Below are positions 357 through 58,335 of a DNA stretch of 64,000 nt, piece by piece. The DNA is taken from the NCBI GenBank assembly GCA_038202665.1, contig JBBRES010000001.1, forward strand, positions 13,255 to 77,254. The letters are read 5' to 3'. A program made the translations under genes and the position numbers. The stretch is from Candidatus Kapaibacterium sp. (GTDB taxonomy: Bacteria > Bacteroidota > Ignavibacteria > Kapaibacteriales > Kapaibacteriaceae). The notes below the pieces were generated by a model that searched no databases, was not told the DNA's origin, and worked only from the letters and a program-made list of their open reading frames with translations. Within the stretch, counting starts at the first letter, position 1. Every line of letters starts with the position of its first letter.

Positions 357-3021
357 TCTTTTTTTCGATGGTGATCAGCACAATCACAACAATTCCAGAC
401 GCCATCACAAAGGCCCACTCGGTCCAACCGAGTGGAGCCGTGTGGAACCACGCCTGCATGAACGGTGCATACGTATAGAGCAACTGCAGCGCCATCATGA
501 GCACCGCTGCTCCCCATACATACATGTTGCTAAAGTAGCCTACGGTGTGCACTGGCTCTACGAGCGTCCTGCACGAAAACACGTACAACGTACTCATCAC
601 CACAAATGCATTCGAAGAAGCAGTGCGAGCTAACGCAAGCGTTTCTCCTTGAGCGAGTTCGAACAGGAAAATCGAGAACGAGCCGCACAACAGCAACAGC
701 CCTACGAAAATCGTTCTGAATAACAGTGCACTCGAGAGCAAAGGCTCCCCACGTCCACGTGGCTTCTTCCGCATGGCATTGGGTTGCAACGGCTCAAAGG
801 CAAGCGGCAGTCCTAAGATTACGGCGGTGGTCATATTGATCCACAGAATCTGCACGGGAAGAATTGGCAGCGCTACGTCAACGGCAATGGCAGCAACGAT
901 CACGAGGCCTTCGCCAATATTCGTAGGGATGGTCCAGACGATGAACTTCAAAAGATTGTCGAAGACAGTTCTGCCTTCTTCGACAGCGTGAACGATGGTG
1001 ATGAAGTTGTCGTCCGTAAGAACCATTGCGGCCGCGTCTTTCGCAACATCCGTTCCACTCTTCCCCATGGCAATACCAATGTCTGCCTTGCGAAGCGCAG
1101 GCGCATCGTTCACGCCATCGCCTGTCATGGCAACAACATGACCGTCTGCCTGGAGTGATTCTACAAGTCGGAGCTTTTGTTCGGGCGTGACGCGCGCGAA
1201 CACAGCCACTTCGCGAGCAGCAGTTGCGAATTCCTCTGCACTCATGGATCCGAGTTGCGTGCCCGTAAGAGCCACGAGTGTATCTCCGTCTCGCTTGCCG
1301 TGCAGTCCTAGTTGTCGTGCGATTGTCGCTGCCGTTACGGCATGATCTCCCGTAATCATTTTCACGGCTATGCCAGCTTGTAAACATTCTGCAATGGCAG
1401 CCTTTGCCTCTTCGCGAGGCGGATCAACCATAGCAACGAGTCCCAAAAACGTCATACCATCGGCGATCATTGAGATATCCATTGAAGACTGTCGTGAACT
1501 CATGCGCTTCTCTGCAAAGGCCAGCACGCGCAGACCGCCACCACTAAGAGCAAGCACCGTATCCATCACAACATCACGGTTCACATCAGAAGTGCACCGA
1601 GAAAGAACCGCCTCCACGCTGCCCTTCATGGCTACATACGAGCCCCCTTCTTCGTCGTGCAACGTTGCCATACATTGATTCTCCGATGAGAACGGGATTG
1701 CATCGATGTAAGGCCGATCTCGCAGTTCACTCTCGCGCGACATCGAACACTTCATACCGAGCACGATCAACGCCGACTCTGTTGGATCTCCGATTGCCAC
1801 CCACTCACCATCCACATTGCGCACGTCACTGGTGTTGCAAAGAATGGCGCTTCGAATCAATGCGCGTAGATCTTCATGTGGTTCCATCACTTCGCCGCGA
1901 GCATCCACGATACTGCCTTCGGGCAAATACCCTGTTCCGCTAACTGCAAGCACTTCGTCGCCCGAGAACACATTCACCACTGTCATTTGATTTTGCGTGA
2001 GAGTCCCAGTTTTATCACTACAAATCACCGTAGTGCTACCAAGTGTTTCGACGGCGGGGAGTCTTCGGATGATTGCTCTTCGCTTTGCCATACGACCAAC
2101 ACCAATGGCAAGAATAATCGTGACCGCTGCCGGGAGTCCCTCGGGAATGGCTCCTACACTAAGCGCCACGGCGGCCAAGACCATGTCGACGATCTTCTCG
2201 CCACGCATCAGCCCCACAGCCATGGTGACAGCGGCAAGACCAAGGATGCCTATCAACAGTCGCTTGCTGAAATGCTCAATGGTCTGCGTGAGTGGTGTTG
2301 TGAGCGACACAGTATTCGCGAGTAACACAGAGATCGTTCCCACTTCTGTGTGCGAGCCGGTTGCAACAACAACGCCAACAGCCGTTCCAGCAACGCAGAT
2401 CGTAGCAGCGTATGCCATGTTCGTTCTATCTGCTAGCACTGCTTCCGGCGCAATCGATCCTGTTGCTTTTTCCACGGCCACACTTTCGCCTGTAAGTGCA
2501 GCTTCTGCAATCCTACATTCGTGAACACGAAGCAAGCGAAGATCAGCTGGGATTTTGTCTCCAGAATCGATTTCAACAATATCACCCGGCACGAGTTCGG
2601 TGCTGGCAATCATTGTTCGCAGTCCACCTCGAATCACAGTACACTCCGTACCAATGCTCGTCGAAAGTGCAGTGAGAGCCTGCACGGCCTTGCCCTCTTG
2701 CACAAAGCCAATGATGGCATTGAGCAAGACCACGCCAATAATGACTCCAGCATCGGTTACGCCACCAAGTGCGGCAGAAACGCCGCCGCTGATAAGCAGA
2801 ATGATGATCAGTGGATTATTGAATTGCTGGAGAAAGCGAAGGATGGAAGAAGGTGGCGGGGCGTGCGGCAGGACATTGGCGCCATAGGTCGATCGACGAC
2901 GTTCCACTTCGTCTGTCGTGAGTCCACAAGCGGGTTGTACGCCGAGCTCCTTGGCGACCTCGTCTACTGAACGTGCATGCCACACGGTGGGTTGCTTCTT
3001 TGAATGGTCATCGTTGTTCAC
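331..3021 (-). CDS. P-type cation-transporting ATPase (P2-type, Ca2+/Mg2+-like)
   Basis: 896 aa. Carries the N-terminal cation ATPase domain, the phosphorylation motif CSDKTGTLT, the hinge motif TGDGVNDAPAL and 10 predicted TM segments. Confidence 0.9.
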   Translation of the reverse strand: MNNDDHSKKQPTVWHARSVDEVAKELGVQPACGLTTDEVERRRSTYGANVLPHAPPPSSILRFLQQFNNPLIIILLISGGVSAALGGVTDAGVIIGVVLLNAIIGFVQEGKAVQALTALSTSIGTECTVIRGGLRTMIASTELVPGDIVEIDSGDKIPADLRLLRVHECRIAEAALTGESVAVEKATGSIAPEAVLADRTNMAYAATICVAGTAVGVVVATGSHTEVGTISVLLANTVSLTTPLTQTIEHFSKRLLIGILGLAAVTMAVGLMRGEKIVDMVLAAVALSVGAIPEGLPAAVTIILAIGVGRMAKRRAIIRRLPAVETLGSTTVICSDKTGTLTQNQMTVVNVFSGDEVLAVSGTGYLPEGSIVDARGEVMEPHEDLRALIRSAILCNTSDVRNVDGEWVAIGDPTESALIVLGMKCSMSRESELRDRPYIDAIPFSSENQCMATLHDEEGGSYVAMKGSVEAVLSRCTSDVNRDVVMDTVLALSGGGLRVLAFAEKRMSSRQSSMDISMIADGMTFLGLVAMVDPPREEAKAAIAECLQAGIAVKMITGDHAVTAATIARQLGLHGKRDGDTLVALTGTQLGSMSAEEFATAAREVAVFARVTPEQKLRLVESLQADGHVVAMTGDGVNDAPALRKADIGIAMGKSGTDVAKDAAAMVLTDDNFITIVHAVEEGRTVFDNLLKFIVWTIPTNIGEGLVIVAAIAVDVALPILPVQILWINMTTAVILGLPLAFEPLQPNAMRKKPRGRGEPLLSSALLFRTIFVGLLLLCGSFSIFLFELAQGETLALARTASSNAFVVMSTLYVFSCRTLVEPVHTVGYFSNMYVWGAAVLMMALQLLYTYAPFMQAWFHTAPLGWTEWAFVMASGIVVIVLITIEKKIRALVSRS

Positions 3022-4523
3022 AGTGAAACTCCAACGGCCGCATTGATCGCATCTTCAAGCAGGAGTTCGTGTACTGCATTCATGTCTATGTATAGAATTC
3101 GATCTTCCGTCGCGAAGGGCACACGAGTGCGGATGCAAGCGATTACACGTTCAAGTGGTTCACTCGTTGTGAGTGGTCGGAGAAGATCGATCCCCTGCGC
3201 GGCGCAAAGCAACTCGATGGATACCACACGCTCTACATTTTGAACGATACGCCACAACTTCCGAGCTCCAATGCTGCCCATGGAGTTGTGGTCCTCTTGA
3301 TTGGCCGACGTGGGAATACTATCTACAGATGCGGGATGTGCGTACACTTTGTTTTCGCTCACCATAGATGCAGCCGTGTACTGAGCGATCATCATTCCGG
3401 AATGCAACCCACCATTGGGGGTAAGGAAGCGAGGCAGACCTCCAAGAGCGTGATTCACGAGGCGTTCTGTGCGACGCTCTGAGATGCTTGCCAGCTCTGC
3501 GACGGCAATTCCAAGAAAGTCGAGCACAAGTGCCACGGGTTGACCGTGAAAGTTTCCGCCTTCAACATGTGCATCATCCTCTGCAAATATCAAGGGATTG
3601 TCTGTCGCAGAATTCATTTCTCGCTCAATCACAGAGGCACAGTACTCCACGGTGTCACGTGTTGCACCGTGCACTTGTGGCATACATCGCAAGGAGTAGG
3701 CGTCTTGAACTCTCTCATCTCCCTCACGATGCGACGCGCGGATTGCACTGCCATGCATGAGTGAGCGCAGGTTCGTTGCAGATCGGATCTGTCCGGGATG
3801 AGGTCGTGCCTTGTGCAGGCGTGCGTCGAACGCGTTGTCTGTTCCACGAAGAGCGTCTGCCGAGAGTGCACCTGCGATGTCTGCTGCATCGCAAAGCCGC
3901 CTCGCGCGGTCCACAGCGAGTGCACCGTAGGCGCACATCATTTGCGTTCCGTTAATCAAGGCCAAGCCTTCTTTTGCAGCAAGGCGTACGGGTTCGATTC
4001 CATGTTCGCGCAGCACATCAGCTGCAGGTTTGCCGCCGATCTCTCCCTTTCCGATCAGTGCCAATGCTAGATGGGCCAGCGGTGCTAGGTCGCCGCTACT
4101 GCCCACACTTCCTTGCTCAGGAATCGTAGGGGTGATGCCGACGTTGATCATCGCAATAAGGGTGTCGAGCGTCGACAGACGTATGCCCGACAAGCCCTTT
4201 GCCAACGCATTCACGCGGAGGATCATCATGGCGCGCACGACTGCGTCTGGCAATGGGTCGCCCATACCAGCGCTATGACTGATGATCAAGTTTTCTTGTA
4301 AGTGTTCGACGTGCTCAGTTGGAATGAAGACGTTAGCAAACTCTCCAAAGCCCGTCGTCATTCCATAGACGATACGCCCCTCTGCAATCCAACGTTCAAC
4401 AGCATCCCTTGCTGTTTGAACGCGAACGCGCGATTCGGGAGTGAGACCAATCTGTGAAGTTGGATCGAGCGCAGCTGCTGCCAGCGCCTTGATCCCGAGT
4501 GTTGAGCCGTCTAGATAAAGCAT
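3018..4523 (-). CDS. hutH: histidine ammonia-lyase family (MIO-dependent lyase/aminomutase) enzyme
   Basis: 501 aa with HAL/PAL family similarity throughout. The MIO loop reads GSSGDLAPLAHLAL (Ser-Ser-Gly where Ala-Ser-Gly is usual). It overlaps the ATPase start by 4 nt. Confidence 0.8.
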   Translation of the reverse strand: MLYLDGSTLGIKALAAAALDPTSQIGLTPESRVRVQTARDAVERWIAEGRIVYGMTTGFGEFANVFIPTEHVEHLQENLIISHSAGMGDPLPDAVVRAMMILRVNALAKGLSGIRLSTLDTLIAMINVGITPTIPEQGSVGSSGDLAPLAHLALALIGKGEIGGKPAADVLREHGIEPVRLAAKEGLALINGTQMMCAYGALAVDRARRLCDAADIAGALSADALRGTDNAFDARLHKARPHPGQIRSATNLRSLMHGSAIRASHREGDERVQDAYSLRCMPQVHGATRDTVEYCASVIEREMNSATDNPLIFAEDDAHVEGGNFHGQPVALVLDFLGIAVAELASISERRTERLVNHALGGLPRFLTPNGGLHSGMMIAQYTAASMVSENKVYAHPASVDSIPTSANQEDHNSMGSIGARKLWRIVQNVERVVSIELLCAAQGIDLLRPLTTSEPLERVIACIRTRVPFATEDRILYIDMNAVHELLLEDAINAAVGVSL

Positions 4524-6741: not shown

Positions 6742-6869
6742 GGGGCCACGCGTCAGATCAAGGCTGAGCGATGTAAGGGAAACAACCGGTTCAAGCATAT
6801 ATGGACGAAAATAGACCCCTTTCCCCTTTCCCCTTTCACTTTCCTCCTTCACCTGTATCTTTGTTCACC

Positions 6870-26248: not shown

Positions 26249-27625
26249 ATGTTCTTCAAACAGATCTACGAACCAGGCCTCGCCCACGCATCGTACATGG
26301 TGGGATGTCAGAAAACCGGAACCGTCATGGTGATCGACGCCAAGCGTGACGTCGACACGTACATCGAGATCGCACAGCAGGAACGACTGCAGATCACGCA
26401 CCTTACCGAAACGCACATTCATGCAGACTTCTTAAGCGGAACGCGCGAACTCGCCGCGCTCACGGGCGCAGAAATGCTGCTGAGTGATGAGGGCGGCGAG
26501 GAGTGGCGCTACGAGTTTCCGCATACTGGACTCAGGAATGGCGACATCTTTATGGTGGGTAACATTAAGGTGGAGGTTGTTCACACACCAGGCCATACAC
26601 CTGAGCACATCTCCTTCTTGGTAACCGACACTCCGGCCATTGCGGACGTACCGATTATGATGTTCACAGGCGACTTCGTCTTTGTTGGCGATGTTGGACG
26701 TCCGGATCTTCTTGAAAAGGCGGCAGGGTACAAGGGCACGATGGAGATTGGGGCACGACAACTTTGGACTTCCCTTGCCGCCTTCCGCGCCTTACCAGAC
26801 CATATTCAGGTTCATCCTGCACATGGTGCCGGATCTGCTTGTGGCAAGGCTCTAGGTGCGATTCCTTCGTCGACGGTGGGGTATGAAAAACTAGTAAACT
26901 GGGCATTGCGCCACACCAACGAAGAAGAGTTCGTGCAAGAGCTTCTGTCGGGTCAGCCAGAGCCTCCCTACTACTTTGCCCACATGAAACGCTTAAACAA
27001 AGTTGATCGTCCGCTCCTTCCAAACGTACCCGAGCTCAAACGACTTTCGCTTGCCGATATCGACGATGCTCTAGCGAACAACCAAAACATCGTAGACACG
27101 CGGTCGAAGGTGTCGTTCGCAGGTGGACACATTCCGAACACAATCAACATCCAAGACAACAAGGCCTTCTCTACATGGGCCGGCTGGATGCTCGACTACA
27201 ATGAGCCCTTCACCGTAATCGCTCCTCCTGAACGCACAAACGAGATCATGCGGAAGCTTATGCGCATCGGACTTGATTCTGTTCGCGGCGTTATCGAAGA
27301 CGTCACCATGTGGACGGATGCCGGCAGAGACCTGGCTACTGTTCCACAAATCGACCTTGACGAACTCAAGCAACGCTACGATCATGAGAACGTATTCGTA
27401 GTCGATGTACGCGGTGCAACGGAACATGCGGAAGGTCATATCCCAGGCGCAACAAACATTCATGCCGGCTACCTTCCGCAGCACTACGCAGAAATTCCGA
27501 GAGACAAAGTCGTCGTAATCTCCTGTCAATCCGGCGACCGCTCCAGCATCGCAACATCCATGATGCTTCGCGCCGGATTCACCAACGTGGTAAACTTCCC
27601 GTTGGGGTTTGGGGGATGGAAGTGA
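26249..27625 (+). CDS. persulfide dioxygenase-rhodanese fusion (MBL-fold + two rhodanese domains, CstB-like)
   Basis: MBL-fold motifs (THIHADF, HTPGHTPEH), a non-catalytic rhodanese domain and a catalytic rhodanese with a CQSGDRS loop. The stop TGA is the first triplet of repeat array A. Confidence 0.8.
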   Translation: MFFKQIYEPGLAHASYMVGCQKTGTVMVIDAKRDVDTYIEIAQQERLQITHLTETHIHADFLSGTRELAALTGAEMLLSDEGGEEWRYEFPHTGLRNGDIFMVGNIKVEVVHTPGHTPEHISFLVTDTPAIADVPIMMFTGDFVFVGDVGRPDLLEKAAGYKGTMEIGARQLWTSLAAFRALPDHIQVHPAHGAGSACGKALGAIPSSTVGYEKLVNWALRHTNEEEFVQELLSGQPEPPYYFAHMKRLNKVDRPLLPNVPELKRLSLADIDDALANNQNIVDTRSKVSFAGGHIPNTINIQDNKAFSTWAGWMLDYNEPFTVIAPPERTNEIMRKLMRIGLDSVRGVIEDVTMWTDAGRDLATVPQIDLDELKQRYDHENVFVVDVRGATEHAEGHIPGATNIHAGYLPQHYAEIPRDKVVVISCQSGDRSSIATSMMLRAGFTNVVNFPLGFGGWK

Positions 27626-27940
27626 GTAAAGTGAGAAGTGACGAGTGAGAAGTGAGAAGTCAAGTGAGAAGTGACGAGTGAGAAGTTCGTAAAGTGACAA
27701 GTGACGAGTGAGAAGTGAGAAGTCAAGTGAGAAGTGAGAAGTGAGAAGTGAGAAGTTCGTAAAGTGACAAGTGACGAGTGAGAAGTTCGTAAAGTGACAA
27801 GTGACGAGTGAGAAGTGAGAAGTCAAGTGAGAAGTGACAAGTGAGAAGTGGAATGTGACAGTCTGCCGGGAGGCTGCCGGGAGGCTGCCGGGAGGCTGCC
27901 GGGAGGCTGCCGGGAAGGGTGAGGAGTAAGAAGTGAGAAG
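27621..27940 (+). repeat. composite satellite array A: about 30 GTGAGAA-type heptamers, then 5x CTGCCGGGAGG, then 2-3 heptamers
   Basis: Tandem periodicity read directly. Unit variants are GTGAGAA, GTGACGA, GTGACAA, GTCAA and TTCGTAAA. The array fills the entire spacer between the PDO stop and the S51 peptidase GTG start. Confidence 0.95.
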
Positions 27941-28649
27941 CAAAAACATCATAGCGCTGGGTGGGGGCGGGTTTTCCATGGAACCGGAGAATACCGCTCT
28001 AGACCTTTACGTTTTGCGAGCTGCTGAAGCTGCAAGGCCGAAGGTGTGTTTTCTTCCGCACGCGGCGAGTGACGAGGCTCGATACTGTCTCAACTTCTTT
28101 ACGGCCTTCGCTCGGTACGACTGTACCCCGTCTTCGTTGTCGTTGTTCACAACGCCACCGAAAGAGAATATGGAATCGTTCTTGCATGAGCAAGACGTGA
28201 TCTATGTTGGAGGAGGCAATACGAAGTCGATGCTTGCAGTGTGGCGAGAGTGGGAGCTTGATCGGATCCTTCGTTCATGCTACGAGCATGGCGTGGTGCT
28301 GGCTGGCGTAAGCGCTGGTGCGAATTGTTGGTTCGATGCCTACATCACGGATTCAGCATCACAAGAGCTCGGCGCGCTCACGAACGGACTCGGACTTATC
28401 GGCGGAACATTTTGTCCGCATTACAATGGCGAAGAACAACGTAGACCAACGTTTCACCAACTCGTTGCAAACGGCACCGTGCCCGATGGCATCGCCTGCG
28501 ACGACAGCGTTGCGGCACATTTCAAGGATGGACAGCTACACGTAGCTGTTGCATCGAATCCGTACGCACAAGCATTTCACGTCCGCCGGACAGCCACGGG
28601 CGTTACAGAAGAATCCATATCCACTCATCATCTCGACACCACTTCATGA
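27933..28649 (+). CDS. peptidase S51 family (dipeptidase E / cyanophycinase-like)
   Basis: Conserved N-terminus IIALGGGGF and central GVSAGANCW nucleophile elbow. The GTG start lies within the last heptamers of array A. Confidence 0.7.
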   Translation: MRSKNIIALGGGGFSMEPENTALDLYVLRAAEAARPKVCFLPHAASDEARYCLNFFTAFARYDCTPSSLSLFTTPPKENMESFLHEQDVIYVGGGNTKSMLAVWREWELDRILRSCYEHGVVLAGVSAGANCWFDAYITDSASQELGALTNGLGLIGGTFCPHYNGEEQRRPTFHQLVANGTVPDGIACDDSVAAHFKDGQLHVAVASNPYAQAFHVRRTATGVTEESISTHHLDTTS

Positions 28650-29734: not shown

Positions 29735-30125
29735 TCGTTATTGTACACTTTCGCAGTCGTACCCGTTCGTCGCACCTCGCTATCGTTGTCCTATACTTTC
29801 GTCGCACTTCGCTTTCGTCGTACTTCGCTTTCGTAATACTCCCCTTTCGTAGAACTTCGTTTTCGTAGCACTTCGCTTTCGTCGTACTTCGCTTTCGTCG
29901 TACTTCGCTTTCGCAGAACTTCGCTTTCGTAGCACTTCGCTTTCGTAAAACTTCGTTTCGTCGTACTTCGCTTTCGTCGTACTTCGCTTTCGTCGTACTT
30001 CGCTTTCGCAGAACTTCGTTTTCGTAGCACTTCGTTTTCGTAATACTTCGTTATCGTAATACCTCGCTTTCGAAGCACTTCGTTTTCGAAACACTTCGTC
30101 TACGAAGTCCTTCGTTCTTGCAGTC
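29735..30125. repeat. satellite array B: about 24 tandem copies of a 16-mer, CTTCGCTTTCGTNGNA
   Basis: Perfect 16-bp periodicity over about 390 bp between convergent tauE-like and der 3' ends. Distal copies degrade into short palindromes (ACTTCGTCTACGAAGT). Confidence 0.95.
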
Positions 30126-30169
30126 CCTTGCTTTTTAGCCGAATGCTTTCGCTGCCGTACGTTTTCGCA

Positions 30170-31492: not shown

Positions 31493-31540
31493 ATGCGAAG
31501 TTACGGCTAAAGAGGAGAGGAAGGTGAAAAGGGGGTAGTC

Positions 31541-31727
31541 AAGTGAGAAGTGAGAAGTAAGCAAAGTGAGAAGTGACAAGTGAGAAGTAAGAAGTAAGTA
31601 AAGTGAGAAGTGACAAGTGAGGAGTGAGAAGTCAAGTGAGAGGTGAGAAGTGAGAAGTGAGTAAAGTGACAAGTGAGAAGTGAGAAGTGAGGAGTGAGTA
31701 AAGCGAGAAGAGACAAGTGAGGAGTGG
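31541..31727 (+). repeat. satellite array C: about 27 GTGAGAA-type heptamers
   Basis: Same unit family as array A. It lies in the divergent spacer between der (-) and the four-helix-bundle gene (+). Confidence 0.95.
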
Positions 31728-31814
31728 CGCCCTTTTAAGAGCTATGTCACGTTTGGGGGTCATCTAGGCCCCAGGTGGTGGAGGCACCAATCACTATGAA
31801 ACAAGCATAATCAT

Positions 31815-32192
31815 ATGAAAAGCGAGCAGGAATCGCCCCTTTTCGTCAAATCTGGGCAGTTAGCGGACCGAATACGGAATATTGCCCATGCAAAGTGGTG
31901 GGTTGACACCGACCGCGACATTCTGCGGCAAGTTCTCCGTTCTGGGACTTCAGTTGGCGCTAACTACCGAGAGGCCTGGTTTGCTGAAAGCAAAAACGAC
32001 TTCGCACACAAACTCAAGATTGTCCGAAAAGAGGCGAACGAGACGCTCTATTGGCTTGAACTTCTATCACAAACTCCGAGGTCACACATGTGTACCGACC
32101 TTGAATGCGCCCAACAACTCGCGCGCGAGATCATCTACTTGACCACCGCGTCAATCACTTCGTTAGGCCGTAAGCCTCCAAAGCCAACCTAG
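31815..32192 (+). CDS. four-helix-bundle protein (23S rRNA intervening-sequence protein family)
   Basis: Family pattern ..GANYREAWFAESKNDFAHKLKIVRKEANETLYWLELL. It is bracketed by inverted arrays C and D. Confidence 0.75.
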   Translation: MKSEQESPLFVKSGQLADRIRNIAHAKWWVDTDRDILRQVLRSGTSVGANYREAWFAESKNDFAHKLKIVRKEANETLYWLELLSQTPRSHMCTDLECAQQLAREIIYLTTASITSLGRKPPKPT

Positions 32193-32295
32193 CCCATACA
32201 CTGCAGCCAAACACGAAAAACATCGGCTATGCTCGACGCCTACGTGCGTCCGATAACTCCCGAAGTACTATACACCAAACCAACTATCGCACTTT

Positions 32296-32632
32296 CCCGG
32301 CAGCTTCCCGGCAGCCTCCCGGCAGACTGTCACATTCCACTCGTCACTTCTCACTTCTCACTTGACTTCTCACTTCTCACTCGTCACTTGTCACTTTACC
32401 CACTTCTCACTCGTCACTTGTCACTTTACCCACTTCTCACTCGTCACTTGTCACTTTACCCACTTCTCACTTGTCACTTGACTTCTCACTTCTCACTCGT
32501 CACTTGTCACTTTACCCACTTCTCACTTGTCACTTTACCCACTTCTCACTCGTCACTTCTCACTTGACTTCTCACTTCTCACTCGTCACTTGTCACTTTA
32601 CCCACTTCTCACTTTACTCACTTCTCATTCTT
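32296..32632 (-). repeat. satellite array D: 3x (C)CCCGGCAG followed by about 42 TTCTCAC-type heptamers with a 28-bp higher-order unit
   Basis: It is the reverse complement of array A. The higher-order unit CACTTCTCACTCGTCACTTGTCACTTTAC(C) repeats about 7 times. The array runs into the stop codon of the 32618..33526 gene. Confidence 0.95.
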
Positions 32633-33526
32633 CTGCTTCGCATGCTGCAGTCTCTCCATCAGCACAAAGTCATAGCTCACGAGCATCGTAGAGGCTGAGC
32701 CATACATGCCGATGGTGACGGCTTCTTTGTCGCCAACATTCCAGTAGACATATTCGGATTCGACAACGGCGTGTGGACCGTAGTGCGAGATGAGGTCGTC
32801 GACAAAAACTTTTGCCGCCTGTTCGCGTTGCGTTTTGTCGCGAAACGAGTAGTAGAGCTCCGACTTATATGCACGGTTTTGCGCGTCGATGTGAATGAGG
32901 AGAGAGTCGGCCGTGAAGCCATTGCGACTGTAGTTCTTGAAGGCGAGCACCGATTCTTCGATGCGCTTCTTTACGCAGCCAGAGTCCTTAGCGTAGTCTT
33001 CCACATCCTCGCGTGCAGTCTTCAGCGGCAAGGCGAGAGGCCACCTGCGCACCGTTGTGGAATCATTGAACACAAAATTGTCGGGTGCGAATCGGACGGT
33101 CATCAAATCGTCTTCCGTCACAACGCCAATACTTACGAGATCACCATCATATCCTTCCCACCCTGCAAAGTCCTCGCCAAACCGTGATGGCGCTCCGAGC
33201 TTCGTTGTTAGGATGTCGGTGACACGATCTAAGGTCTTTGCGCCTTCGTAGGGAATGTAGAGTGTGATGGCCGACATTGCATTGTTGCTGTAGTGCACGT
33301 ACACAGAGTCGGTCTTCATACCTTCCCACGTATACCCCGTTGCTTGCAACACTTGCTCCGCGCCCCAATCCATCATGCCGTCTCGCACCGTGAGTCCTTG
33401 CTTCGCGAGCACCACGCGCGCATTATCTGCGGGTGCCATGTAAGGCACTTGCGTTGGCCACGGATATTGGGCCATCAAGGAACACGTAGAAAGTAGGAAG
33501 GCGGCAAGGAGGAGCGGACGGGACAT
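32618..33526 (-). CDS. hypothetical secreted protein
   Basis: Signal peptide (LLAAFLLSTCSLMAQ). The last about 6 codons (..KQKNEK*) are encoded by repeat-like sequence. Confidence 0.45.
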   Translation of the reverse strand: MSRPLLLAAFLLSTCSLMAQYPWPTQVPYMAPADNARVVLAKQGLTVRDGMMDWGAEQVLQATGYTWEGMKTDSVYVHYSNNAMSAITLYIPYEGAKTLDRVTDILTTKLGAPSRFGEDFAGWEGYDGDLVSIGVVTEDDLMTVRFAPDNFVFNDSTTVRRWPLALPLKTAREDVEDYAKDSGCVKKRIEESVLAFKNYSRNGFTADSLLIHIDAQNRAYKSELYYSFRDKTQREQAAKVFVDDLISHYGPHAVVESEYVYWNVGDKEAVTIGMYGSASTMLVSYDFVLMERLQHAKQKNEK

Positions 33527-57277: not shown

Positions 57278-58003
57278 CATGTCACGTGCTGTCGAAGTTG
57301 GCCTTGAGTGATTTCTGGTCTTGATAACCTTGATCATCGTTGCATAATCGTTTTTATTCTGATTGGCGTTCTCACTGGAGAACGATGCATTTGCTTCATC
57401 AATCATGTCGCTCCTTCCCAGATAGCTACCAATTGCTGATTGTTGTCCGCACGGAGCGTGAGAAAACGTAGGTGCCTAACCACAACATTTGGCATGGTCG
57501 TCCTTTTCCGTCGAGCCGTGCATCACGACCATCAATCCTACCTCGGCACTGTAAGCATACCATCAAATCCATCACCTATGAGTTGATGTGTTGAGTTAGT
57601 TTCGCACCATTACCACTAGGAGGTGGAATGATGTGACAGAGAGATACGATGGTTACGTGTTCGAGCAGTGGAAGCGTAGTGGAATTGGCAAGGAGCCTTA
57701 TGCGAGGTAGCACGGCGGTGCTGTAAGATTTGCAATGTGCCGCCTTTCAATGCTACATGCCACCACACAAACATCAAAGCGCATAACTGGCTTCGATACG
57801 CCATGTTGAATGTCAACTCCACTGCGCCCGCGGACTATCACGCACTCTTGCCAAACGCTATCGACCCTGCACTTCTGGCGCAACGTCCTAGGTGTACGTG
57901 CACTACTGTTTACTCAACTGGCCGCGTGTTTCGGGGTTGACTTGGTACTCGTGCGTTCTCCCACCTGCCGATAACTGCAGGGGTACTGCATTGGAATAGG
58001 TGA

Positions 58004-58190
58004 GGCTCACTTCTCACTTCTCACTTCTCACTTCTCACTTCTCACTTAACTTGCCACTACTTTCCTTCCCGGCAGCTGCCGGGAAGCTTCCCGGCAGAAA
58101 TTCATTTTTCTTCTCACTTCTCACTTCTCACTTAACTTGTCACTTGTCACTCGTCACTTCTCACTTTAACTCGTCACTTCTCACTTTAAC
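58004..58190 (-). repeat. satellite array E: TTCTCAC x5, palindromic CCCGGCAG/CTGCCGGG core x3, then TTCTCAC-type heptamers
   Basis: CCCGGCAGCTGCCGGGAAGCTTCCCGGCAG contains two overlapping perfect palindromes (16 bp and 22 bp). It is flanked by the same heptamers as arrays A, C and D. Confidence 0.95.
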
Positions 58191-58335
58191 TTTCCTCTTG
58201 CCTTCCCTCCCTACCATCCTTCACGATCTTCGCACGCGGCTCTTTCGGGATCCTTTTCGCGTTGTGAGTCCAGGATATGTAGAGGCCAATGAAGTAGCGG
58301 CGAAGTCGGGTGATGTAGTGGTGTTATGTAGGGCA

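Follow-up and report, generated by a model that had tools for sequence, protein, structure and literature searches.

Inverted heptamer arrays around a PF05635 gene in a Candidatus Kapaibacterium contig and their probable role as arms of an intervening-sequence-like cassette

The stretch of DNA analysed here, hereafter the window, comprises 64,000 nt (positions 13,255-77,254 of contig JBBRES010000001.1, assembly GCA_038202665.1, Candidatus Kapaibacterium sp.) and carries four loci of tandem heptamers of the GTGAGAA type, designated A, C, D and E, two of which, C and D, stand in opposite orientations on the two sides of a small gene of the PF05635 family. It is chromosomal DNA of ordinary character, with a G+C content of 53%; it encodes a protein with a type IX secretion system (T9SS) tail, and the best named homologues of its Der protein come from metagenome-assembled genomes (MAGs) of Candidatus Kapabacteria and Ignavibacteria. 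No transposase or reverse transcriptase is found among the 25 families listed (77 matched) for the 52 other open reading frames (ORFs) of the window, and no Rfam family reaches threshold anywhere in it. All four array loci sit between Pfam-supported genes, and the description of the arrays as an intergenic, dispersed family, given in an earlier sequence-only reading of this DNA, was borne out, with A and D proving to be true paralogous copies. The same reading had overlooked that a PF05635 gene lies between C and D; it is from this gene that the arrays most likely derive their meaning, namely as arms of a stem-loop cassette resembling the intervening sequences (IVSs) of 23S rRNA genes.

The cassette occupies the site between der and a gene encoding a 302-aa hypothetical protein. 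Its first element is array C (31541..31727, plus strand; 26 units), a purine-rich 5' arm that lies between the divergent der and PF05635 genes and is devoid of the 11-mer core CCCGGCAG seen at the other loci. The PF05635/TIGR02436 gene follows in the loop of the cassette (31815..32192, plus strand) and encodes a 125-aa, four-helix-bundle, Avd-like protein of the type annotated as '23S rRNA intervening-sequence protein', with matches to Pfam PF05635 (E = 2.7e-14), to NCBIfam TIGR02436 (E = 2.1e-19) and to its nearest solved structure, the pentameric PDB entry 2rld (E = 4.8e-16). The D core, three 11-mers on the minus strand (32294..32326; TTCCCGGCAGC on the plus strand), forms the inner side of the second arm, and array D itself (32327..32640, minus strand; 41 units) constitutes the 3' arm, which is pyrimidine-rich on the plus strand and contains the TGA stop codon (32618-32620) of the convergent 302-aa gene. 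As C reads GTGAGAA on the plus strand and D on the minus strand, the two are inverted arms around the gene, and they are complementary at 75-82% over 122-159 nt (inverted repeats I2 and I7). The minimum-free-energy fold predicted for 31520-32650 is a near-continuous C:D stem of about 190 nt around the ORF at -448.9 kcal/mol; either arm folded alone is unstructured (z of about -0.3).

Five informative assemblies of relatives were found by exact-protein look-up: L125 (NCBI MAG GCA_965610785.1, contig CBFDKD010000088.1), L122 (a JGI contig), L123 (an ENA contig), L126, and L387 (a second JGI genome, JGI 3300060284). The ratio of nonsynonymous to synonymous substitutions (dN/dS) of the PF05635 gene against its L123 and L122 orthologues is 0.044-0.055 at dS values of 0.8-2.6, which indicates that the gene is under purifying selection and its protein functional; from ratios this low at such divergence it also follows that the unit of gene plus arms is old and maintained. 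The start region of the ORF (ATCATATGAAAAACGAGCA...) has a period of 21 nt, or three times 7, and is present in two copies in the window (approximately 31793-31835) and in about 10 tandem copies in L123 (149-363), so that slippage in multiples of 7 reaches into the 5' end of the gene.

The architecture of inverted arrays around PF05635 genes is general. In a survey in which metagenome contigs were scanned with the PF05635 protein alignment, 80 loci were retrieved, 70 of them with enough flanking sequence on both sides, and Tandem Repeats Finder returned 402 rows for the 80 loci, with 174 at period 7, 54 at period 14 and 17 at period 21. These repeats are concentrated directly upstream and downstream of the PF05635 ORF, where array density is 2.7 per kb, the remainder of these loci having 0.18 per kb (a difference of about 15-fold). 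A period-7 array lies within 250 nt upstream of the ORF at 54 of the 70 loci, downstream at 51 and on both sides at 44; in 39 of these 44, reverse-complementing the upstream unit and rotating it yields the downstream unit with no more than one mismatch, the correspondence being exact in 21. The median flank-to-flank inverted-repeat score is 19.75, compared with 10.5 in direct orientation and 9 for shuffled flanks. The units themselves vary by locus (TTAGTGA, AATTGAC, AATGACG, GGATTTC, AAAGTCG), and a few loci have a period of 8, 9 or 11. The arms of the survey loci are also polar: the 5' arm is G- and purine-rich and the 3' arm C-rich (purine bias, p = 8e-4), with G exceeding C in the 5' arm at 26 loci and the reverse at 5, and with C exceeding G in the 3' arm at 27 loci and the reverse at 8. 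None of the 20 survey loci examined for this feature lies in an rRNA gene. A search of the literature found no paper on this arrangement for PF05635 outside rRNA, only the 23S IVS of Coxiella being reported, and PF05635 genes have been noted as insertions within cas loci (PMC3936711).

Comparison with the relatives indicates that the cassette is an insertion, because it is absent from L126, present in L122 and L125, and opposite in orientation in L123. The gene order of L122 is that of the window, its cassette protein is 83% identical and large arrays flank its PF05635 gene; in L123 the protein is 93% identical and the array-gene-array unit is reversed relative to der; and in L126, whose Der is 89% identical, 80 bp separate a 303-aa gene from der, with neither cassette nor array. 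Comparison by eye of the empty site in L126 with the filled site revealed no target-site duplication, the spacers being too diverged to set the ends. The same site in L387, between a 299-aa gene and der, is filled by a PF05635 gene only 46% identical to that of the window and in the other orientation (2754-3584), with arms composed of the 11-mer AAGAGAGAAGT (10 copies) and its pyrimidine complement; such a paralogue at one site points to replacement of the cassette or to more than one insertion there. Tandem arrays account for 2-7.6% of the long loci (at least 6 kb) of relatives with a PF05635 cassette and 0-0.28% of 13-21 kb in three relatives without a cassette at the site, a relation between array cover and cassette presence that is suggestive in this small sample.

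At a much shorter distance, L125 is 100% identical to the window over 2,882 nt of sampled coding sequence, with a single mismatch in a further 841 nt. Its array C is identical to that of the window, and its array D lacks exactly 30 bp, the length of one higher-order unit. The spacer of the convergent TauE and der genes is filled in the window by an unrelated satellite (29796-30134) of about 21 copies of the 16-mer CTTTCGTAGTACTTCG; in L125 this satellite is exactly 16 bp shorter, and the genes between it and array D are 100% identical. Near-identical strains thus differ by insertions and deletions of whole repeat units, that is, by repeat-unit slippage, and the length polymorphism that the sequence-only reading had proposed to seek by strain comparison is real. 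The arrays also hold up by the criteria of that reading, being present and polymorphic in independent assemblies, with C and D kept at the same site in relatives. As for the TauE/der spacer elsewhere, in L123 it holds a variant unit, CGAAAGGCTACGGCTA, within whose array the contig ends, in L387 a solo (GACAAGT)8 array, in L122 only 7 bp, and in L126 16 bp without an array.

The units of the window arrays were counted in two ways, with Tandem Repeats Finder and by parsing into GTGA-type units. The former places period-7 arrays at 27619-27850 (32.9 copies), 31541-31726 (25.7), 32344-32631 (40.1) and, for locus E, at 58006-58047 (6.0 perfect copies) and 58110-58186 (11.4); the latter yields 34 units at A, 26 at C, 41 at D and 6 plus about 12 at E. 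In addition, the 15-mer GTGAGAAGTGAGAAG occurs 32 times in the window with at most one mismatch, every time within the array loci, compared with 0.01 occurrences expected from shuffles. The existence of GTGAGAA-type arrays at four loci is accordingly well founded, and the unit variants GTGACGA, GTGACAA and GTCAA are as previously described, with GTAAA in addition; the figure of 25-45 heptamers per locus holds for A, C and D and fails for E, with about 18 units in two blocks. Units of exactly 7 nt number 21 of 34 at A, 17 of 26 at C and 22 of 41 at D, a share given overall as about 60-65%, and higher-order units of 19, 30, 63 and 86 bp are assembled from pieces of 5, 7, 9 and 11 nt, GTAAA and GTCAA among them. 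The 11-mer CCCGGCAG occurs 13 times in the window against 1.55 expected, and 11 of the 13 copies lie within loci A (5), D (3) and E (3), with none at C. The composite architecture of heptamers joined to a core, which had been attributed to all four loci, is therefore a property of A, D and E.

On the GTGAGAA strand of the arrays TGA or TAA occurs in all three frames about every 21 nt, and no frame stays free of stops for more than 13 codons, as opposed to open runs of up to 91 codons on the complementary strand. For this reason neighbouring genes simply end or start within the arrays, and spurious ORFs run across them on the complementary strand. The GAGGTGA variants of the unit match the Shine-Dalgarno core, the majority of units here being GAAGTGA; Bacteroidota rely little on Shine-Dalgarno sequences. 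Promoter and terminator scans of the arrays and their surroundings gave no excess over shuffles, with the E core alone being terminator-like. A putative conserved junction motif, TGTCACRTT, was rejected as a separate element, as it corresponds to degenerate or inverted heptamers (GTGACAG, GTGACAT). A further small period-7 run of the window genome, with a unit different from GTGAGAA, is found at 6816-6852, just upstream of an ATG at about 6871, where (CCCCTTT)x3-5 grades into TCACTTT-like units.

Array A (27619..27862, plus strand) consists of 34 GTGA-type units, among them 12 GTGAGAA, 5 GTGACGA and 4 GTGACAA together with GTAAA/GTCAA pieces, and is followed by the A core (27863..27915, plus strand), a perfect (100%) 11-mer tandem of 4.8 copies of CTGCCGGGAGG with a fold of -37.7 kcal/mol (z = -3.6), and by a tail (27916..27940, plus strand) of heptamer-like units, GGGTGAGGAGTAAGAAGTGAGAAG. 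The array opens at the stop codon of an upstream MBL-fold/rhodanese (persulfide-dioxygenase-like) gene, the TGA at 27623-27625 falling in the first heptamer, and the tail supplies a GAGGAG Shine-Dalgarno-like motif and, in a heptamer-like unit, the GTG start (27933) of an S51 peptidase ORF whose Pfam match begins at residue 6, so that array A does fill its spacer from stop to start as had been noted. A and D share 162 nt at 93% in inverted orientation (inverted repeat I1), covering the higher-order heptamer units, the junction GTGGAATGTGACAGT and the 11-mer core; D had been described as the exact mirror of A, and a near mirror it is, with three core copies as against five. In L122, site A holds only GTGACAAGTGACAAGTGACACGTGAC (four heptamers), the ATG of the peptidase gene coming immediately after it, and there is no core anywhere. 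Because of this extensive similarity to D and the four-heptamer seed in L122, the most fitting reading of A is that the inner part of arm D, together with its strain-specific CTGCCGGGAGG module, was recently copied; the copy may have been installed at a short seed between two genes of an operon by ectopic recombination or template switching and then remodelled by slippage. The 3' untranslated region (UTR) of the PF05635 mRNA, which would contain arm D on the plus strand and whose complementarity to the intercistronic RNA of A is 93% across 162 nt, could conceivably act in trans on the operon at A.

Array A is rearranged in L125, where its core has one inverted and three direct copies instead of the five direct copies of the window. 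Past array A (L125 5700-6100), GAPDH, PGK, rhomboid and GcpE genes are found in place of the dioxygenase gene that occupies this position in the window, L122 and L126; this junction reflects either recombination between arrays of two loci or a chimeric assembly, and it implies another array upstream of GAPDH. The S51 peptidase gene (window 27933-28649) is absent from L126 (12139-13853) and from two further assemblies, L127 (8292-10040) and L128 (6485-8233), in which rhodanese directly follows the dioxygenase, and the gene beside the heptamer seed is hence itself an insertion in the lineage of the window.

Locus E comprises array E1 (58004..58052, minus strand), with six perfect GTGAGAA units that read CTCACTT on the plus strand, an E core (58066..58098) of three 11-mers in alternating orientation, TTCCCGGCAG-CTGCCGGGAAG-CTTCCCGGCAG, and array E2 (58106..58193, minus strand), with about 12 units in the orientation of E1, upstream of a TPR histidine-kinase gene. 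The core forms a perfect GC-rich hairpin, whose palindrome folds at -22.7 kcal/mol (z = -4.1) and which is terminator-like in the consensus scan, a scan that as a whole is no higher than shuffles. In the approximately 720 nt upstream of E (57278-58000), ORFs of both strands stay at or below 68 aa and nothing matches Rfam; this stretch could represent a decayed gene or an uncharacterised RNA beside the array.

In other genomes, a scan of one genome per species detected at least 120 stretches with three exact GTGAGAA units, distributed among Gemmatimonadales, Acidobacteriota, Bacteroidota, Planctomycetota, Verrucomicrobiota, Gammaproteobacteria, Bacillota and others. The notion that GTGAGAA is a special cross-phylum unit was nevertheless rejected, as control heptamers are as common in viral contigs, where GTGAGAA stretches number 13, those of the mirror unit GTGAAGA 49, of GAGAGTA 9, of the stop-free single-base variants GTGGGAA 9 and GCGAGAA 13, and of TAACTGA 82; there is consequently no evidence that GTGAGAA or its stop codons are specially selected. 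Nor do heptamer arrays in general come with the CCCGGCAG core, which is at background level in the arrays of the 120 other genomic loci and absent from L122 and L123; the module is by these comparisons specific to the strain lineage of the window. Inverted pairs at GTGAGAA loci show the order (GTGAGAA)n...(TTCTCAC)n in 26 cases and the opposite order in 4. The orientation of the arrays relative to flanking genes is unbiased (87 vs 66; 78 vs 73), and the frequent occurrence of a stop codon in the first unit is explained in part by the presence of TGA in all frames. A literature search with the unit as a string returned nothing relevant.

Between the arms of many of these inverted pairs lie short inner hairpins that fold strongly and in which a motif, GTCATYCYGAG...CGAGGRATC, recurs. 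In Hymenobacter and in several MAGs of Gemmatimonadales, GTGAGAA arms surround such hairpins, 117-181 nt long with folds of -59 to -117 kcal/mol, and nested hairpins were located at L014 5930-6196, L105 2250-2520, L110 2043-2273 and 2992-3186, L037 4571-4760, and L053 2133-2324. The inner-hairpin motif corresponds to no Rfam family and had no match in the literature, and the sole Rfam match among the nested-hairpin loci is a c-di-GMP-I riboswitch in L031, away from the arrays. To judge from their layout, the nested hairpins look like an undescribed cross-phylum element consisting of gene-less derivatives of the cassette architecture.

On balance, it is somewhat probable that the window arrays are slippage-prone heptanucleotide satellites whose primary role is that of the two arms of an IVS-type stem-loop cassette, with a function that, by analogy, is probably RNase III processing or insulation. 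When the cassette is transcribed from either strand, the purine-rich 5' arm would pair with the pyrimidine-rich 3' arm over about 190 nt, leaving the gene in the loop of the duplex, and RNase III may cut this C:D duplex, by analogy with the 23S rRNA IVS, thereby freeing the cassette RNA and parting the flanking transcripts. As a stem of 7-nt repeats can re-pair after any 7-nt shift of register, it would tolerate and accumulate replication slippage. The arms might undergo recombination, both mutually and with short heptamer seeds at other sites, and A and E could then be non-autonomous by-products, E being another gene-less derivative. Several observations weigh against this interpretation. The formation of the C:D duplex in vivo and its processing by RNase III in this organism are proposed wholly by analogy, and arms of 186 and about 300 bp far exceed the 28-bp stem of a true IVS, a length that RNase III does not need. 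No recombinase or transposase was found for the cassette, and a chimeric assembly, instead of recombination, could be the source of the other far flank that A has in L125. E1 and E2 share one orientation, so that no cassette stem is possible at E. A PF05635 gene is present at only 3 of the 120 genomic GTGAGAA loci listed, at two of the three tightly between or directly beside the arrays, which implies that the link runs from gene to arrays and not from any array to the gene. Finally, about 110 of 172 arrays are solo (unpaired), from which it follows that heptamer arrays exist independently of the cassette and that A and E may be functionally unrelated to it.

It might also be supposed that the arrays are an artefact in which low-complexity sequence was collapsed or expanded during assembly, the more so as short-read contigs terminate within A (L385), D (L001, from Logan) and E1 (L384, an NCBI MAG) and the far flank of A is not the same in L125. 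This explanation is essentially refuted: independent assemblies (L125, L122 and L123) carry the arrays, contigs of others end inside them, C is identical base for base in L125 and D differs there by one clean 30-bp unit, the JGI and ENA assemblies, which come from diverged relatives, have related arrays at this site, and the arrays have a complex, non-periodic higher-order structure. A more serious rival regards the arrays as functionless, neutral or selfish expansions of the microsatellite type, chance heptamer runs that grew by slippage up to the coding sequence, with the PF05635 gene merely located in a repeat-prone spacer. Arrays that fill spacers exactly to stop and start codons, whole-unit differences between near-identical strains, and the abundance of arbitrary control heptamers in viral contigs (49, 9, 9 and 13, against 13 for GTGAGAA) would all be expected under it, as would the lineage specificity of A and of the 16-mer satellite, since L122 has four units and a 7-bp spacer at these positions and L126 no array at either, and heptamer simple sequence repeats (SSRs) are over-represented in bacteria generally (PMC4692102). 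It is harder to reconcile with arrays that are about 15 times denser beside PF05635 and whose units are matched reverse complements at 39 of 44 loci, with arms kept around an orthologous gene across dS values of 0.8-2.6, and with the strict polarity of a purine-rich 5' and a pyrimidine-rich 3' arm (26 vs 4; 26 vs 5). As an account of the arrays as a whole, neutral expansion thus seems unlikely though far from negligible; it is plausible, and a serious rival, for the solo arrays A and E, and not plausible for C and D.

Two further proposals assign the arrays a function of another kind. The arrays might be cognate sites of the pentameric, Avd-like PF05635 protein itself, the whole forming a selfish or regulatory unit in which A and E would be bound in trans. 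Each PF05635 paralogue has an arm unit of its own, as in one JGI genome in which P0004 is accompanied by GTGACA-type heptamers and P0005 by AAGAGAGAAGT 11-mers, and solo arrays match the unit of the resident cassette (A and E in the window, (GACAAGT)8 in L387). Avd binds nucleic acid. The strong purifying selection on the protein, its homology to Avd (PMC10053308) and the contrast in array cover between relatives with (2-7.6%) and without (0-0.28%) a cassette at the locus point the same way. The proposed binding is nonetheless hypothetical, common descent and recombination would account equally well for shared units, the gene lies near only 3 of the 120 GTGAGAA loci listed, the sample of relatives is tiny, and it is hard to see how a protein of five-fold symmetry would relate to a 7-nt repeat; this proposal is held to be rather improbable. 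Phase-variable spacers, as suggested by the sequence-only reading, would operate through unit number, which would alter how promoters and 5' UTRs are spaced or structured and so switch the S51 peptidase operon at A and the histidine kinase at E. Here the whole-unit length polymorphism between near-identical strains, the rearrangement of A in L125 and the position of A between a stop and the next start, where it supplies a Shine-Dalgarno-like motif and GTG start, are in keeping with switching, and intergenic heptamer SSRs drive phase variation in Haemophilus (PMC12721329). Arrays of 10-40 units are, on the other hand, far past the range of promoter spacing, the polymorphic array D and 16-mer satellite lie between convergent 3' ends at which spacing is irrelevant, no sigma-70-like promoter was found in or beside the arrays above shuffled expectation, and the host is a soil Kapabacteria-like bacterium as opposed to a host-adapted pathogen; such switching is conceivable for A and very improbable as an explanation of the arrays. 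For the nucleoid or domain boundary elements and the non-B DNA also suggested for these loci, nothing in the analysis offers support.

A broader proposal, that PF05635 proteins and heptamer satellites are the two halves of one widespread system, is speculative and on present evidence improbable. Each paralogue would act on its own bracketing unit by binding, protecting, processing or mobilising it, and the STRR-like arrays (described below), the TAACTGA arrays and solo arrays such as A and E would be gene-less derivatives or sites acted upon in trans. The interest of the window lies less in its four loci than in the link between heptamer arrays and PF05635 that they expose, which is undescribed as far as the literature was searched. 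This link joins two old puzzles, the purpose of bacterial intergenic heptamer arrays, known since 1990, and the role of the very common PF05635 genes; most of the non-rRNA PF05635 genes surveyed lie between matched inverted heptamer arrays, and the window is an extreme and easily recognised example. If functional, the link may explain many of the breaks that repeats cause in assemblies of soil and aquatic metagenomes; if not, the arrays are ordinary fast-evolving satellites.

Among known systems, one of the closest is the 23S IVS of Coxiella burnetii and Leptospira (PMC4990558). The Coxiella IVS has an S23p ORF, terminal inverted repeats that form a 28-bp stem, and, upstream of the ORF, GACAGAT heptamers in tandem whose number, three or four, depends on the strain, with RNase III cutting at the first repeat (PMC4990558). 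The cassette of the window is similar in having an S23p/PF05635 family gene in the loop, terminal inverted repeats with a predicted long stem, heptamers beside the ORF that vary between strains, and a presence, absence or inversion that differs among relatives. It differs in lying between protein-coding genes (der and the 302-aa hypothetical gene) and not in helix 25 or 45 of 23S rRNA, in having satellite arms of 186 and about 300 bp, roughly ten times longer than the stem of about 28 bp, in the strong purifying selection on its ORF, whereas that of Coxiella is decaying, and in the gene-less copies of its arms at other loci. It is in Coxiella and other true IVSs alone that excision by RNase III has been demonstrated (PMC4990558); to the cassette it would apply by analogy. 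The cassette thus works like an IVS in its layout yet fails the defining feature of IVSs, insertion in 23S rRNA.

Other classes share single features with the cassette. The Avd protein of diversity-generating retroelements belongs, like the cargo protein, to PF05635 and is a pentameric four-helix bundle (PMC10053308; match to PDB 2rld), and a diversity-generating retroelement as such was rejected, the neighbours being der and a hypothetical gene, the families listed including no reverse transcriptase and the only long repeats being satellites. Miniature inverted-repeat transposable elements (MITEs), repetitive extragenic palindromes (REPs) and bacterial interspersed mosaic elements (BIMEs) are also short, gene-less inverted-repeat units in many copies between genes, often at convergent 3' ends, and the gene-less (GTGAGAA)n...(TTCTCAC)n hairpins may stand to the gene-bearing cassette as MITEs stand to autonomous elements; the present arms are, however, tandem satellites of variable length and not fixed terminal repeats, and no transposase, REP-associated tyrosine transposase (RAYT) or target-site duplication was seen. 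A transposon with its own transposase was rejected on its defining features, none being encoded among the families listed, and a CRISPR array, in which repeats of 23-50 nt alternate with unique spacers of like length, was rejected because the units abut head to tail without spacers. The iteron arrays put forward by the sequence-only reading fare no better, plasmid iterons being 17-22-bp direct repeats beside a rep gene or an origin and the present units 7-nt repeats in a chromosomal housekeeping context with no rep gene.

The arrays themselves find their counterparts among the heptamer arrays of bacterial intergenic DNA, which include the short tandemly repeated repetitive (STRR) sequences of cyanobacteria (Calothrix), GGGAATC in Xanthomonas and GGGGAYT in Nostoc (PMC4692102) as well as TAACTGA arrays in Beggiatoaceae, Cyanobacteria and Bacteroidetes (PMC4679880). 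As heptamer SSRs are over-represented in bacterial intergenic DNA (PMC4692102, PMC4679880), the earlier statement that satellites of this sort are unusual for a bacterial chromosome does not hold as regards their kind. Common to these arrays and those of the window are 7-nt units, intergenic position, many dispersed loci, up to tens of copies, a lack of the array in the corresponding spacer of close relatives, lengths that vary by whole units, contig breaks and, sometimes, inverted pairs. STRR sequences in the strict sense have a cyanobacterial host and the units CCCCAGT, TTGGTCA or CAACAGT, and an assignment of the window arrays to them was rejected in view of the GTGAGAA unit and the soil Kapabacteria/Ignavibacteria-like host of the phylum Bacteroidota. 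The window arrays are further set apart by their higher-order units of 19-86 bp, by the strain-specific 11-mer module and by the direct link to a PF05635 cassette, which is unreported in PMC4692102 and PMC4679880, and they are a new member within the class of bacterial intergenic heptamer arrays.

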